Assembly (NCBI GenBank): GCA_003140935.1
Contig: PLLJ01000042.1
Location: 10,144 to 74,143 of the forward strand
DNA from: Candidatus Omnitrophota bacterium
GTDB taxonomy: Bacteria > Omnitrophota > Omnitrophia > Omnitrophales > Aquincolibacteriaceae
Reading direction: 5' to 3'
Length of the DNA: 64,000 nt
Each line of letters opens with the position of its first letter. The stretch's first letter is position 1. The position numbers and the translations under genes were made by a program. The notes below the pieces were generated by a model. It had not been told where the DNA came from and did no database searches. It was given only the letters and a program-made list of their open reading frames with translations. Positions 25,364 to 30,081 of this stretch are shown here, piece by piece.

Positions 25364-26899
25364 ATGGGGAGTTTTAAACCAAAGATCGCGGCATGGATCG
25401 TTCCGGCGCTCGTGCTGGGAATGACCGTCTTGCTTCCGGGTTGTTCCACGTCCCGTCCGTCTACAGGCGTCCGAGAAATCACGACCACCACGACTCGTGA
25501 CGGGATGCTTCGCGGGACTTTGGATCTTTCCTCCGGGGTGAATAATGAAGGCGCCATTTTTGTTGAAAAGGTCATGCCTTCCAAGGTCACGGTCGGGAAA
25601 CCTTTCGAATATACTCTCCATATCACCAACCGCACCGGTTGTCACTTTGGCAACGTGTTGGTCAGTGAAAAATTCCCGGAAAAATATGAAATGTTAAAAG
25701 CGACTCCGGAGCCGGCAAAAGTTTCCGGGAGTGCGGCCGAGTGGACGATCGGGGAGTTTGGCCCGAAAGAGACCAGGATCCTTACGATCCGCGGAACCGT
25801 TCAGGAGATCAGTCCGGTGCTCGCCTGTACGCGGGTGACTTATATTCCCATGCTTTGCCTCGGGCCTGAGACCACGGTTTCCGGGTTAAAACTCACGCTG
25901 ACAGCTCCGGGACAGGCCCTGTTGTGCGATGGGATCACCGGAAAGATCAAGATCGAAAATACCGGGGCCGATCTTATGGAAGATATCATTATCTCCGAGG
26001 CTTTGCCCGAAGGTTTAACGACTACGGAAGGCAAGAATTCTTTGGAGATCCGCGCGGGTAAGCTCGCGGGCCATGAGACGAAAACATTCGATATGAAGTT
26101 GAAGGTACAGAAGGCCGGAAGCTATATCCACAAAATCAGGGCCGTAGCTTCGAACGGGTTATCCATCTCAGCCGCTCCTGTGACGACGGTCGTGAAACAG
26201 CCGGCGCTTAAGATCGCCATGAGCGGTCCGGAAAAAGTTTTTATGACCCGGGACGCGGATTTTAAGATCACGGTCGAAAATACGGGAAATGCGGATTCCG
26301 CGAACACAATGGTGAACGCCAAAATCCCGGCCGGAATGAAATTCGCTTCAGCCAGTAACGGCGGCACTCTTTCAGGGGATCATGTGGCCTGGGTCCTTGG
26401 CGTTCTTGCCGCCCCCAAGCCTGTGGTTCTTAGCCTGACTTGTAAAAGCGTCGTCAGCGGCCCTGCGCAGATGGTCGCTACGGCCAAGGGCGTTTGTTGC
26501 CAGGAAATTTCCACGACGGCGAAGATCGATGTTCAAGGCATTCCGGCGATCCTTCTGGAGGAGGTCGACACGGAAGATCCCATCAAGGTCGGAGGCGTGG
26601 AGAAGTTTCGCGTCACCGTGACCAACCAGGGTTCCGCGCCGGATGCGCATATTGTTCTCAAGGTAGATCTAGAAAAAAACTTTGATTATGTTTCCTCTTC
26701 AGGTCCCACCCAGGCGAAGGCCGAGAGCGCCAAGTCCATTGAGTTTGCCCCGCTCGCGTCTCTAGCGCCGGGGCAAAAAGTGACATGGGAGATCCTCGCG
26801 AAGGCCGTGGAAGAAGGCGACCATCGCGCTTCTTTCCATATCAAAAGCGATGCCCTCGATCGCTCAGTCGAAAAGGTCGAATCGACCCGGGTTTACTAA
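25364..26899 (+). CDS. Cell-surface lipoprotein with repeated DUF11 (conserved repeat) domains
   Basis: Lipobox LLPGCSTS. At least three Ig-like repeats of the form KVT.G.PFEYTL.I.N.G / LKLTLTAP...GKIKIENTG. Confidence 0.65.
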   Translation: MGSFKPKIAAWIVPALVLGMTVLLPGCSTSRPSTGVREITTTTTRDGMLRGTLDLSSGVNNEGAIFVEKVMPSKVTVGKPFEYTLHITNRTGCHFGNVLVSEKFPEKYEMLKATPEPAKVSGSAAEWTIGEFGPKETRILTIRGTVQEISPVLACTRVTYIPMLCLGPETTVSGLKLTLTAPGQALLCDGITGKIKIENTGADLMEDIIISEALPEGLTTTEGKNSLEIRAGKLAGHETKTFDMKLKVQKAGSYIHKIRAVASNGLSISAAPVTTVVKQPALKIAMSGPEKVFMTRDADFKITVENTGNADSANTMVNAKIPAGMKFASASNGGTLSGDHVAWVLGVLAAPKPVVLSLTCKSVVSGPAQMVATAKGVCCQEISTTAKIDVQGIPAILLEEVDTEDPIKVGGVEKFRVTVTNQGSAPDAHIVLKVDLEKNFDYVSSSGPTQAKAESAKSIEFAPLASLAPGQKVTWEILAKAVEEGDHRASFHIKSDALDRSVEKVESTRVY

Positions 26900-27191: not shown

Positions 27192-27292
27192 GATCTTTTG
27201 CGCAGCCAAAGGCTCGATCCAAAAGGTCGGGCCTTTTTATTTTCCGGGGTTGCTTTATTTTTCCTATTCTTTCTAGTACAATGTCGCACCTT

Positions 27293-27365
27293 GCTGGTGT
27301 AGCTCAGGGGTAGAGCAGCTGTTTTGTAAACAGCGGGTCGGGGGTTCAAATCCCTCCACCAGCTC
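27293..27365 (+). tRNA. tRNA-Thr (anticodon UGU)
   Basis: Hand-folded cloverleaf: acceptor GCTGGTG/CACCAGC, D-arm GCTC-AGGGGTA-GAGC, anticodon stem GCTGT/ACAGC with loop TTTGTAA, T-arm GGGGG-TTCAAAT-CCCTC. Confidence 0.8.
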
Positions 27366-27373
27366 GTTTTTGG

Positions 27374-27454
27374 GCTGGAGTGGGGAACCTGAAGCGAAGG
27401 TCGTCAAGACCAAGCGGAATGTCGAAAGCATTGGGCTTTCGACCTCCACCAGCT
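27374..27454 (+). ncRNA. tRNA-like element or tRNA remnant; 81 nt; its last 12 nt (cctccaccagct) match the 3' end of the tRNA-Thr
   Basis: An acceptor-like 5' end GCTGGAG pairs imperfectly with CACCAGC. There are internal hairpins GGTC-gtcaa-GACC and GTCGAAAGC-attgg-GCTTTCGAC, but no canonical cloverleaf by hand. Confidence 0.25.
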
Positions 27455-27475
27455 GATTTTAGTTTGATTTTTGAT

Positions 27476-27559
27476 GGGGAGTTGCCCGAGCGGCCAAAGG
27501 GGACAGACTGTAAATCTGTTGGCTTATAGCCTTCAATGGTTCGAATCCATTACTCCCCA
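27476..27559 (+). tRNA. tRNA-Tyr (anticodon GUA), class II with a long variable arm
   Basis: Acceptor GGGGAGT/ACTCCCC. Anticodon stem ACAGA/TCTGT with loop CTGTAAA. Variable arm GGCTTATAGCC. T-arm AATGG-TTCGAAT-CCATT. Discriminator A. Confidence 0.75.
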
Positions 27560-27924
27560 TTTTTTCCGTCTTATGATTTCGCTAAGGACCCATTCTTTTT
27601 ATTACTTCCGGTTCGCCGCGATATTTTCTTATTTTTTGTACGAGTTGAAATCAATTACATCATTTTGATTCAATAAAATACTATAGCTACTATTTAAGCA
27701 ATATGAATAACAATAGCTATCATTTGTATTAATTTGTAGCATTACTATATATTTCTTATCAATATAAGCTAAATTACAATAAAAAATTTAATATCTTTGA
27801 AATACTATCCTAATTTCTTGAATAACTTAATTATTGTGTTACAATAGCAAAGAAGGTGAGATAATATAAAATATTGATTTATTGCTATAAGAAGATAATT
27901 CTGAAAGGGTGAATAACGGCAAAT
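27560..27924. other. Non-coding island of about 25% GC (genome about 55%) between the tRNA locus and the GGDEF/EAL regulator gene
   Basis: Visible from composition. It contains repeated short motifs (tgaataac x3, acaatagc x2, ttacaata x2, aatactat x2) and a GGCAAATA tandem repeat spanning the downstream start codon. Confidence 0.5.
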
Positions 27925-30081
27925 ATGACGGCAAATAATGGGCTCAAAGTTTTGGTTATTGAGGATGATCCCAACTATTTTATCTTGCTGAATGAACGCC
28001 TGTCCCAAAACAAAGATCCCTCCTTCGAACTTGTACGCAGCAAGCACATGCAATCCGGTCTTGAGCGCCTTCGGGAAAGCGACATTGATGTGGTGCTTCT
28101 GGATCTGACGCTTCCCGATAGCGAGGGGCTCAATAGTTTCGTTTCGGTCCACACGGCATTTCCTTTGGTCCCCATTATCATTCTTACCGCCATCAACGAT
28201 GATGATCTAGCCGCGCAAGCGATCGCATTTGGAGCTCAGGACTTTTTGACGAAGGGGAGTTTCGATCGCCAGCTTTTGGTCAAAAGTATCTGCTACGCCG
28301 TCAGCCGCAATAAGAGTCAGGCCCAGCTGCAAAAGTATTATCAGGAGAACGAACGCTCCAAACGGGCGCTTCTGGAACGGGACGAAAGGTTCCGAAGCCT
28401 CGTTTCGAACATTCCTGGCGCGGTCTATCGTTATACTCTGTCCGTGGCGAAGGAATGGGAAATAGACTTTATCAGTGATGTGATCAAGGACATTGCCGGC
28501 TATCCTGCCGACAACTTCATAGGAAAGAATATCTCCGATTATTTTGAAAAAGTGTTGCCTCAAGACCTTCCGCTTTTGAAGGATGCGTTCGAGAAGGCGG
28601 TTCAGCACGGGAATTTATTTGCCGTGGATTACCGTGTCCGCCATATGAACGGGGATTTCCGGTGGGTCCATGATCGTGGGCGAGCCGTTCGGGACGTGGC
28701 GGGGAGAGTGACACACGTGGACGGCGTTATTTCGGATACCACGGAACGGACCAAAGAGAAAGAACGTTTTAACCAGCTGGTTTATTATGATGCCTTGACG
28801 AATTTACCGAACCGGGAGCTTTTTGTCGACCGTCTGGATCAGGCGATCCAGCAGGCCCGTCGCAAGAAGGAGACGGGGGCGGTGTTAGCTTTAGACCTGG
28901 ATCATTTCAAACGCATTAACGACACGCTGGGGCATCCCATCGGAGACCAATTGATCAAGGCGGTTTCCGTGCGGCTTCTGAAGTTGCTTTTTGACTCCGA
29001 TACCATCACCCGCATCAGCGGAGGAGCTTTCATCATTCTTCTGTCGCGGGTGGCAAAAAGCGAAGACGCGGAGAACGTCGCCACGAAGCTTCTGACGGCT
29101 TTCAAGGCGCCTTTTCTTATTAACGAGCACGAACTTTTCACAAGCTGCAGTATCGGGATCGCGCTTTTTCCAAACGATGGAGAAACAAGCGATATCCTGA
29201 TCAAGAACGCCGATGCGGCCATGCACATCTCCAAAGAACGGGGCAAAGACCGGTACCAGCTTTTTTCCTCCTCGATCGCCAATAGTAGTTTTGAACGGCT
29301 TGTTCTTGAGAGCAGTCTTCGTCGTGCCATGGAACGCAAGGAGTTCCAGCTTTTTTATCAGCCTCAGCTGGATCTTCGTACCGGGAAAGCGATCGGCGCC
29401 GAGGCGCTGATCCGCTGGAAGCATCCGGATCTCGGATTCATTCCTCCGATGGAATTCATTCCGATCGCGGAGGAAACGGGGCTGATCCATCCGATCGGAG
29501 AATGGGTCCTGAAGACGGCCTGCGAGCAGAAAAAACTTTGGGACCGGCAAGGCTTCGAATCTTTTCGAGTGTCCGTGAATCTTTCGGCCCGTCAATTCCA
29601 TTACGCCAATCTTGTGGATATGGTCGGAGACACCATTCGGAAAAGCGGCATCGATCCAAAGTGCCTGGACCTTGAACTGACGGAAAGTACGATCATGGAC
29701 CGTTTGGAAGAGACCACCCTGACCTTGAAAAGGCTCAAGAACATGGGGGCGCGTATTTCGATCGACGATTTTGGGACCGGCTATTCCTCCCTGATGTACC
29801 TGAAGACATTTCCCATCGACTGCGTGAAGATCGACAAGTCTTTCGTCAACGATGTGACCACCGATCCTGATGACCAAGCCATTACCCACGCGATCATTTC
29901 CATGGCGCATAGTTTGAAACTGGAAGTCGTTGCGGAAGGGGTGGAGACCAAGGAACAGCTTGAACTCTTGAAGTCTCAGAACTGCGATGTCATTCAAGGC
30001 TATCTTTTTAGCAAGCCTATCCCTGTCGACGATGTCTCGACATTTCTCTTGAGTGATGCCGCCAAAAAGATCCTCTCTTAA
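27925..30081 (+). CDS. Response regulator with REC, PAS, GGDEF (degenerate) and EAL domains
   Basis: REC: VLVIEDD, DVVLLDLTLPD. PAS/PAC region. GGDEF domain with the active-site motif replaced by SGGAF. EAL domain with an intact EALIRW, DDFGTGYSSL and QGYLFSKP. Confidence 0.85.
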   Translation: MTANNGLKVLVIEDDPNYFILLNERLSQNKDPSFELVRSKHMQSGLERLRESDIDVVLLDLTLPDSEGLNSFVSVHTAFPLVPIIILTAINDDDLAAQAIAFGAQDFLTKGSFDRQLLVKSICYAVSRNKSQAQLQKYYQENERSKRALLERDERFRSLVSNIPGAVYRYTLSVAKEWEIDFISDVIKDIAGYPADNFIGKNISDYFEKVLPQDLPLLKDAFEKAVQHGNLFAVDYRVRHMNGDFRWVHDRGRAVRDVAGRVTHVDGVISDTTERTKEKERFNQLVYYDALTNLPNRELFVDRLDQAIQQARRKKETGAVLALDLDHFKRINDTLGHPIGDQLIKAVSVRLLKLLFDSDTITRISGGAFIILLSRVAKSEDAENVATKLLTAFKAPFLINEHELFTSCSIGIALFPNDGETSDILIKNADAAMHISKERGKDRYQLFSSSIANSSFERLVLESSLRRAMERKEFQLFYQPQLDLRTGKAIGAEALIRWKHPDLGFIPPMEFIPIAEETGLIHPIGEWVLKTACEQKKLWDRQGFESFRVSVNLSARQFHYANLVDMVGDTIRKSGIDPKCLDLELTESTIMDRLEETTLTLKRLKNMGARISIDDFGTGYSSLMYLKTFPIDCVKIDKSFVNDVTTDPDDQAITHAIISMAHSLKLEVVAEGVETKEQLELLKSQNCDVIQGYLFSKPIPVDDVSTFLLSDAAKKILS

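Follow-up and report, generated by a model that had tools for sequence, protein, structure and literature searches.

A candidate structured-spacer group with RtT-like architecture in the Thr–Tyr tRNA operon of an Omnitrophota clade

What occupies the space between two tRNA genes when its final nucleotides repeat the end of the tRNA before it? The question arises in a 64-kb stretch of a Candidatus Omnitrophota contig, hereafter the window, in which tRNA calling by ARAGORN and Rfam identified only two tRNAs, Thr(UGU) and Tyr(GUA), separated by 109 nt. Within this interval lies an 81-nt element that we call ME-A. A sequence-only reading of the locus had taken the duplicated tRNA end, together with an AT-rich island downstream of tRNA-Tyr, for the remnant of an integrated element whose cargo has been lost. 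We find that the 81-nt element is probably not an integration scar. Our leading, though far from certain, reading is that ME-A represents a previously undescribed group of structured spacers in the Thr–Tyr operon of one Omnitrophota clade, with an architecture like that of RtT in Escherichia coli.

The tRNA-Thr(UGU) gene lies at 27293–27364 on the plus strand (the end falling at 27364 or 27365 depending on the tool; 70.6 bits with the Rfam tRNA model) and does not encode CCA; tRNA-Tyr(GUA) follows on the same strand at 27476–27559 (27475/6 to 27559/60 by tool; 56.7 bits). ME-A, at 27374–27454 (+), begins 8–9 nt past tRNA-Thr. The 12-mer CCTCCACCAGCT, which closes tRNA-Thr at 27353–27364 and includes the discriminator, recurs exactly at 27443–27454 (+) as the last 12 nt of ME-A. 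The copy spans the 3' strand of the T-stem, the 3' strand of the acceptor stem and the discriminator, and the match widens to 16 of 18 positions when the U-rich trailer is included; 78 nt separate the two repeats. A specified 12-mer would recur by chance within ~600 nt with a probability of ~600/4^12, or 4e-5, and a 14-mer allowing up to two mismatches had four matches in the window against 0.31 expected. The 5' end of ME-A, GCTGGAGT, is similar to the tRNA-Thr 5' end, GCTGGTGT. The sequence-only reading was thus right about the position of the element between the two tRNAs (its coordinates being correct within 1–2 nt), about the 12-nt duplication and about acceptor ends resembling those of a tRNA, and also about the lack of a clean cloverleaf, as ARAGORN and the Rfam tRNA model found no tRNA in the element. 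Its suggestion of a divergent tRNA or tRNA-Sec-like RNA did not hold: no tRNA, tRNA-Sec or any other Rfam family matched 27366–27474 even at E ≤ 10, and the only match of the mascRNA model was the genuine tRNA-Thr. An antisense open reading frame overlapping the element is spurious; used as a protein query for further contigs, it retrieved a single irrelevant match.

The predicted fold of ME-A is Y-shaped and closes by pairing 27374–27385 with 27444–27453 around a 2-nt bulge, the strand GCUGG-(AG bulge)-UGGGG facing CUCCA-CCAGC of the tRNA-end copy, which serves as the 3' strand of the closing helix. ME-A shares the first 5 bp of this helix, and the discriminator, with the acceptor stem of tRNA-Thr. 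Hairpin 1 (27399–27411) has the form GGUC-GUCAA-GACC, and hairpin 2 (27421–27443), a 9-bp stem with the form GUCGAAAGC-AUUGG-GCUUUCGAC, stacks straight on the closing helix. The minimum free energy of the fold is -34.1 kcal/mol (z = -3.0 in comparison with dinucleotide shuffles). U-rich sequence trails tRNA-Thr and ME-A alike.

To place ME-A in an evolutionary context, we compared the locus with diverged relatives, found through homologs of two neighboring genes (a CLIPPER-domain protein and a downstream regulator) and through one DNA-pattern scan of metagenomes; these loci carry numbers with the prefix L. The scan returned two loci, and since the window's own JGI contigs were not among them, the collection covers a subset. 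Six metagenome contigs with an identical 57-aa neighbor protein were 100% identical over the locus. The Thr–Tyr pair adjoins the CLIPPER and PLDc_N genes in many relatives, and the spacer between the two tRNAs varies: it measures 12 nt in L056, 22 nt in L017, 28 nt in L012, 78 nt in L053, 79 nt in L018, 85 nt in L044, 86 nt in L063, 109 nt in the window and L058, 144 nt in L011, 154 nt in L065, 160 nt in L061, 208 nt in L060, 216 nt in L059 and 336 nt in L010. Empty sites have spacers of 12, 22 and 28 nt, and occupied sites of 109–336 nt. An identical ancestral arrangement free of indels, which would have spoken against the sequence-only reading, is not what the relatives show: they are polymorphic for an indel at exactly this site, with spacers from 12 to 336 nt.

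Homologs of ME-A are present in a close relative (L058:470–550, 98% identity) and a distant one (L011:5390–5470, 83% identity), both scoring 104–110 bits with a covariance model; the model, built from the three ME-A sequences, found no further copy in the 304 kb comprising the window and the loci. The close homolog differs once in the bulge and once by an A to G change that turns a U–A pair into U–G. tRNA-Thr is 100% identical in the window, L011 and L058. Between the window and L011, identity is 96% for tRNA-Tyr and 83% for ME-A, and 61% for the CLIPPER gene (52% at the amino acid level), 49% for the 100 nt upstream of tRNA-Thr and 33% for the spacer 3' of ME-A, which cannot be aligned. The differences of L011 within ME-A include two compensatory changes, G–C to A–U in hairpin 1 and A–U to U–A in hairpin 2, and the three sequences together show one G–U change; the hairpin loops differ between homologs (GUCAA vs. 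UUCGG; AUUGG vs. GUUGG). Judged from these alignments, the conservation of ME-A with compensatory changes in a distant lineage is unlike a neutral scar.

A second family, ME-B, occupies the same site in L010, L059 and L060, with units of 111–112 nt whose interior is different and whose layout is the same. Two copies stand in tandem in L010 and one in L059, which belongs to the same species. The 5' strand of ME-B reads GCU(G/A)GG..GGGAUUUG, two hairpins follow in the interior, and the 3' strand, CAAAUCCCUCCACCAGCU, repeats 18 nt of tRNA-Thr, T-loop to discriminator. The ME-B model also detected L007:5536–5659 (minus strand, 69.6 bits), which is positioned downstream of tRNA-Tyr. This copy terminates in CGAAUCCAUUACUCCCCA, the last 18 nt of tRNA-Tyr, and in its 5' strand GGGAUUUG is replaced by GGGAUUCG, with the pairing to the tail copy kept. 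Whichever tRNA precedes ME-B, the ends of the element correspond to it. In a comparison of three distinct ME-B sequences (as for ME-A, three), we identified eight compensatory pairs, one of them a U–A to C–G change in the closing helix of L007, where the Thr tail gives way to the Tyr tail. The ME-B folds have z scores of -4.6 to -4.8 relative to shuffles, and the G–U pairs of ME-A and ME-B are all on the tRNA-sense strand. In L007, ME-B abuts the stop codon of a convergent CLIPPER gene, and the PLDc_N gene is missing there.

Known RNAs of such design are found in E. coli. At the tyrT locus, Rfam identified four RtT units (RF00391) at 133–137 bits, three of them downstream of tyrV and the fourth in the tyrT–tyrV interval, each ending with AATCCTTCCCCCACCACCA, which repeats the last 19 nt of tRNA-Tyr, T-loop to CCA. 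The annotated RttR runs from 7 nt past tyrV to the tRNA-end copy, and its predicted fold closes by GGGGAAGGAU paired to AUCCUUCCCC inside that copy. Like RtT, ME units belong to a tRNA operon, where they follow a tRNA immediately and in some cases have a second tRNA behind them; they end in an exact copy of the upstream tRNA 3' end (19 nt in E. coli, 12–18 nt here); a 5' segment pairs with the copy and closes a branched fold in ME-A, ME-B and RttR; and tandem copies occur in variable number. Unlike RtT, they are 90–120 nt long in comparison with the 178 nt of the 178-bp tyrT repeats, reside in a different phylum, attach to tRNA-Thr (once to tRNA-Tyr) with CCA not encoded, and contain no tpr-like open reading frame. 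We kept ME-A and ME-B outside RF00391 because the RtT covariance model, at a threshold of E ≤ 10, matched neither the window nor L060 nor L011; apart from the tRNAs, permissive Rfam scans of these three sequences gave noise only, and no similarity was seen between the interiors of the ME elements and RtT. Published work reports rtT RNA as the product of one repeat unit of the tyrT operon, and a role for RttR in tyrT transcript processing and the stringent response has been suggested. The E. coli unit yields a stable RNA that extends from a few nucleotides past the tRNA to the tRNA-end copy.

Other non-tRNA RNAs also derive from tRNA precursors or tRNA-processing enzymes, among them the E. coli 3'ETS-leuZ and internal transcribed spacer (ITS) sponges, the MALAT1 mascRNA and the Bacillus cereus tRNA-Other. 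They resemble the ME elements in riding on tRNA transcription and maturation, and some use a tRNA-like helix as a processing signal; none among them is known to have an exact copy of the neighboring tRNA's 3' end paired to a dedicated strand. The mascRNA and tRNA-Other are cloverleaf-like, whereas ME-A is not. Unusual tRNAs include the 8/4 or 9/3 allo-tRNAs (PMC5389517). With these and with tRNA-Sec, ME-A shares an acceptor-like helix with a discriminator, a length of ~80 nt and a place in a tRNA cluster. It differs in having neither a D arm nor a T arm and no 7-nt anticodon loop, both of its hairpin loops being 5 nt long and unconserved. ARAGORN, the Rfam tRNA clan and the loops rule ME-A out as a tRNA, including tRNA-Sec and allo-tRNA.

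How might such a unit be made? ME-A would be transcribed together with the two tRNAs from a single putative promoter, a conserved block TTGCTTTATTTTT...TAGTACAAT at 27250–27282 (+) that stops ~10 nt short of tRNA-Thr. A simple promoter consensus scan did not call the 27250–27282 block. The sequence GGTTGCTTTATTTTT...TTTCTAGTACAATG 5' of the operon is kept in L058, L060, L063, L010, L053 and others. The closing helix, discriminator and U-rich trailer may imitate a tRNA and lead RNase P and the 3' tRNA-processing enzymes to excise the ME unit. The unit would have to be excisable, since a structured passenger would otherwise block maturation of the upstream tRNA. Once excised, it could persist as a small stable RNA, as for E. 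coli RttR. Duplication and deletion of modules, and their exchange between lineages, may be driven by the short repeats derived from tRNA and by the tRNA genes that flank the modules without varying.

ME-A has U-rich sequence on both sides. A U-rich linker, CGTTTTTGG (27365–27373, +), connects tRNA-Thr to ME-A, and its final G is able to pair with the last U of ME-A; comparable linkers in relatives (TGTTTTTA, TGTTTTGG, TGTTCTTTAA, GTCTTTTA and TATTTTTA) precede every ME type. On the other side, the U-rich spacer GATTTTAGTTTGATTTTTGAT (27455–27475, +) is like the tRNA-Thr trailer of element-free relatives, and loci without an element have GATT... or GATC... immediately 3' of tRNA-Thr.

Several observations weigh against ME-A and ME-B being maintained structured spacers. 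The reverse strand of ME-A folds nearly as well as the forward strand, and energy does not assign a strand. With three sequences per family, the covariation rests on few pairs and comes with no statistical test. The element is dispensable, being absent from the close relatives L053, L056 and L063, and decayed forms occur: ME-C in L061 is a shorter degenerate relative with two A to G changes in the 3' copy, and L065 retains a truncated ME-B consisting of the 5' half only. A terminator-like hairpin lies between tRNA-Tyr and ME-B in L007, so that co-transcription with the tRNA is not assured there. As the Rfam model of RtT finds no match, the resemblance to RtT counts only as architectural. Finally, site-specific recombination, too, would leave a 3' strand exactly identical to the tRNA.

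This last point belongs to the rival that survives best, although we consider it improbable: a tyrosine-integrase element inserted in the 3' part of tRNA-Thr, creating attL and attR, and was then almost wholly deleted. The hairpins would be element-borne, and the patchy distribution would reflect independent integrations. Direct repeats of the tRNA end do flank the insert, and, as in att scars and remnants like those of cis-mobilizable elements (CIMEs), they consist of the tRNA 3' end from the T-loop or T-stem; a T-loop sublocation class of tRNA integration sites was reportedly described by Williams in 2002. The presence of ME elements varies among relatives, as att scars do, in a pattern incongruent with relatedness, and one site holds three element types and tandem copies. 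Relative to the CLIPPER and PLDc_N genes, the tRNA pair has the opposite orientation in L053, L054, L056 and L007; these relatives have 73–80% protein identity to the window, while the window's orientation is found in an 82% relative and several 50% relatives, L060 and L063 among the loci that share it. The genes 3' of tRNA-Tyr change in nearly every lineage. Contigs L007, L008, L009, L051, L052, L055 and L057 end ~60–260 nt past the CLIPPER gene or inside the tRNA locus, which suggests that assemblies break at the tRNA operon because of repeats or strain heterogeneity.

One relative does have a genuine integrated element. RA.bin90 (contig JAKLIQ010000001.1) carries an element of ~7.7 kb at tRNA-Tyr (L044:1–3052, minus strand; L013:5848, minus strand). 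Its tyrosine-integrase gene starts ~120 nt after tRNA-Tyr in L044, and in L013 an orphan 17-nt copy of the tRNA-Tyr end, GAATCCACTACTCCCCA, stands before the ancestral terminator and the PLDc_N gene. L010 and L059 have this integrase beside tRNA-Tyr as well, the homolog in L010 matching Phage_integrase at E = 9e-33. The 18-nt repeat of ME-B, from T-loop to discriminator, is the block that bounds the RA.bin90 element, and as the element duplicates the same T-loop-to-end block, a recombinational origin of the ME ends is plausible; for the duplicated tRNA end itself, such an origin is possible.

The remaining evidence speaks against a scar. Nowhere in the window, the locus itself included, is there an integrase, a piece of one or any cargo, and the tRNA-Tyr end occurs there only once. 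A unit of 90 nt is too small for an excisable double-stranded circle. In the one intact element examined, the genuine one in L013, the sequence flanking attR is not ME-like. The ME 5' strand covaries to pair with the tRNA-end copy, whereas an att site needs no such pairing, and ME-A is 83% identical with its pairing kept, whereas the identity of the adjacent spacer falls to 33%. The AT-rich island belongs to the neighboring gene. Motif scans and blastn of ME-A and ME-B found no match in IMG/VR or phage records; in the IMG/VR scans, with tRNA-end and interior motifs, there was either no hit at all or only chance hits, hits in coding sequence and hits to tRNA genes from unrelated taxa. Unlike att scars, the ME unit of ~90 nt thus combines the lack of integrase and cargo with a conserved base-paired interior. 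Small size, the lack of an integrase remnant, the covarying 5' strand, conservation and an ME-free attR together argue that the elements would be maintained as folded molecules.

A decaying tandem duplicate of tRNA-Thr, that is, a functionless pseudo-tRNA that has kept only its acceptor ends, is a still weaker candidate, and we regard it as distinctly unlikely. It would account for the 5 bp of closing helix and the discriminator that are identical to the tRNA-Thr acceptor stem, for a U-rich linker similar to a normal trailer and for the degenerate and truncated forms in L061 and L065. The interior of ME-A, however, aligns to that of tRNA-Thr with z = 0.15–0.42 against dinucleotide shuffles, and, as these scores are no better than those of shuffles, we dropped colinear descent of ME-A from tRNA-Thr. 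The tRNA covariance model has no match at E ≤ 10, the compensatory changes preserve hairpins that are not those of a tRNA, and the 5' strand of ME-B pairs with nucleotides of the T-loop, a partner that the 5' end of a tRNA never has.

A cis-acting device, in which the closing helix and GAUUUUAGUUU partly terminate or pause Thr–Tyr transcription or block 3' exonucleases and so set the Thr:Tyr ratio with no free RNA product of importance, is the least probable: although U-rich tracts follow the helix in three of three ME-A loci and the window has no promoter-like site between ME-A and tRNA-Tyr, the terminator scan does not call ME-A, the U-run begins 2–3 nt past a branched structure and not a simple hairpin, relatives function with spacers of 12–28 nt, and the L007 ME-B is placed downstream both of the last tRNA and of a separate terminator-like hairpin. 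An origin of ME from a miniature inverted-repeat transposable element (MITE) or an insertion sequence (IS) is not supported either, as copies occur only beside tRNA-Thr or tRNA-Tyr in the 304 kb, which include the whole window and otherwise fragments of each genome.

What, then, is the AT-rich island? The interval 27561–27924 has a GC content of 0.25, as the sequence-only reading had it, but the background that it gave, ~55% GC, was too high, the whole window being at 0.51. The short repeated motifs that it saw are real; among them are ATAGC(T/A), which recurs, and two 23-nt stretches that are 74% identical. The island leads into an RR-PAS-GGDEF-EAL gene of 718 aa (27925–30081, +; an open reading frame whose Pfam domains were taken from an identical JGI gene), orthologs of which are 65–92% identical across Omnitrophota. 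In L064, L065/L066 and L067, the orthologs have 85–91% identity and upstream regions of ~310 nt with GC 0.25–0.27, and blastn aligned 27700–27912 of the window to the upstream regions of L064 and L065 at 73–76% identity over ~212 nt. Based on blastn and a promoter scan, we predict 27700–27924 (+) to be the AT-rich promoter and 5' leader of the gene; 27561–27699, unaligned to ortholog upstream regions, is a lineage-specific junction from the tRNA-Tyr trailer to the regulator upstream region. The promoter scan called a sigma-70-like site at 27818–27845 (TTGAAT-16-TACAAT with TG), and TTGAAT-N16/17-TG-TAyAmT is kept in four lineages. Arrays of ATAGC(A/T) lie upstream of the promoter (27660–27780 in the window, and within the orthologous regions L064:3692–4000, L065:1385–1694 and L067:3691–4000), with motifs spaced ~10–20 nt apart that hold most of the G/C of the AT-rich region. 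After the promoter comes a conserved leader of ~75 nt, GAAGGTGAGA.AAT..AAAATATTG....TTGCTATAAGAAGAT, and neither a riboswitch nor any other Rfam family matched the regulator upstream region. A 12-nt tandem near-repeat, ATAACGGCAAAT / ATGACGGCAAAT at 27913–27936, straddles the regulator start codon.

The island travels with the regulator gene and is therefore its predicted promoter/operator region. Its upstream neighbors in relatives are TPR genes (L064) or a 326/329-aa hypothetical gene (L065, L067), and no tRNA directly abuts it in L064, L065/L066 or L067; L058 has ME-A and no island. The idea that element and island are the remnant of one insert fails on the homology of the island to regulator upstream regions and on the presence of ME-A without the island in L058, while the alternative offered with it, a heavily regulated promoter, is upheld by the island's conservation upstream of regulator orthologs. 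On sequence evidence, the AT-rich stretch is unrelated to ME-A and is the predicted promoter, operator and leader of a cyclic di-GMP (c-di-GMP) signaling gene. In relatives, the 326-aa gene or an isochorismatase gene sits between tRNA-Tyr and the island. The 326/329-aa gene (L065:404–1384 and L067:2701–3690, both minus strand, 69% identity) points away from the regulator gene. The window lacks it throughout, so that tRNA-Tyr adjoins the AT-rich region. As a candidate integrase it was rejected, having no Pfam domain and being conserved. The indel polymorphism, the RA.bin90 element and the missing 326-aa gene together mark the locus as a recombination hot spot.

The genes beside the locus encode a PLDc_N protein and the RR-GGDEF-EAL regulator. 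The closest named homologs of the CLIPPER-domain protein (25364–26899) are all from Candidatus Omnitrophota, and the same is true of the regulator gene.

Several relatives carry further modules near the tRNA pair. One is LE, a conserved leader element of ~80 nt between the operon promoter and tRNA-Thr (L058:312–389; L060:4889–4968; L053:5393–5475, minus strand; L011:5227–5309) that the window does not have. It starts with GCTG like a tRNA, ends in ...AATGAGAATCA(G/A)T and contains a hairpin with four compensatory pairs; in L011, it is tandemly duplicated, the second copy being partial and upstream. The FE module (L060:4969–5059; L044:3210–3331, minus strand; a tail at L065:1–18) opens with GCTGGTGTAGCT, identical to the first 12 nt of tRNA-Thr, continues as a multi-hairpin fold and then ...CAGGGGTT, and lies directly 5' of the real tRNA-Thr; it does for the tRNA 5' end what ME does for the 3' end. 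SE, a two-hairpin spacer ...GCACTTGCGCTTCATGCGCAAGTGC...CGGCGGGAA.TTGA.ATTCCCGTCCGACAC, is found immediately 5' of tRNA-Tyr in three lineages (L044; L060:5253–5339; L063:4976–5061), and the window is without it.

A broader view, which we offer tentatively and think likelier wrong than right, is that ME-A, ME-B, LE, FE and SE are a family of exchangeable RNA cassettes mimicking tRNA ends that would reside within tRNA operons, be excised by the enzymes of tRNA maturation and be swapped between species through recombination in the invariant tRNA genes, RtT being one instance and not a peculiarity of enterobacteria. If true, such a class would be widespread and functionally important, for example as decoys or sensors for factors recognizing a specific tRNA acceptor or T-arm. 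In practical terms, a duplicated tRNA 3' end need not mark an integration scar, and annotation pipelines working on tRNA flanks would miss or misread such elements. The E. coli RtT has been known for decades and treated as a local curiosity; an RtT-like design is now seen in an unrelated uncultivated phylum, with a different tRNA, in several sequence families and with compensatory evolution, which gives new comparative material for the role of RtT. It suggests a general route by which tRNA operons may gain passenger RNAs, or a recurrent functional solution.

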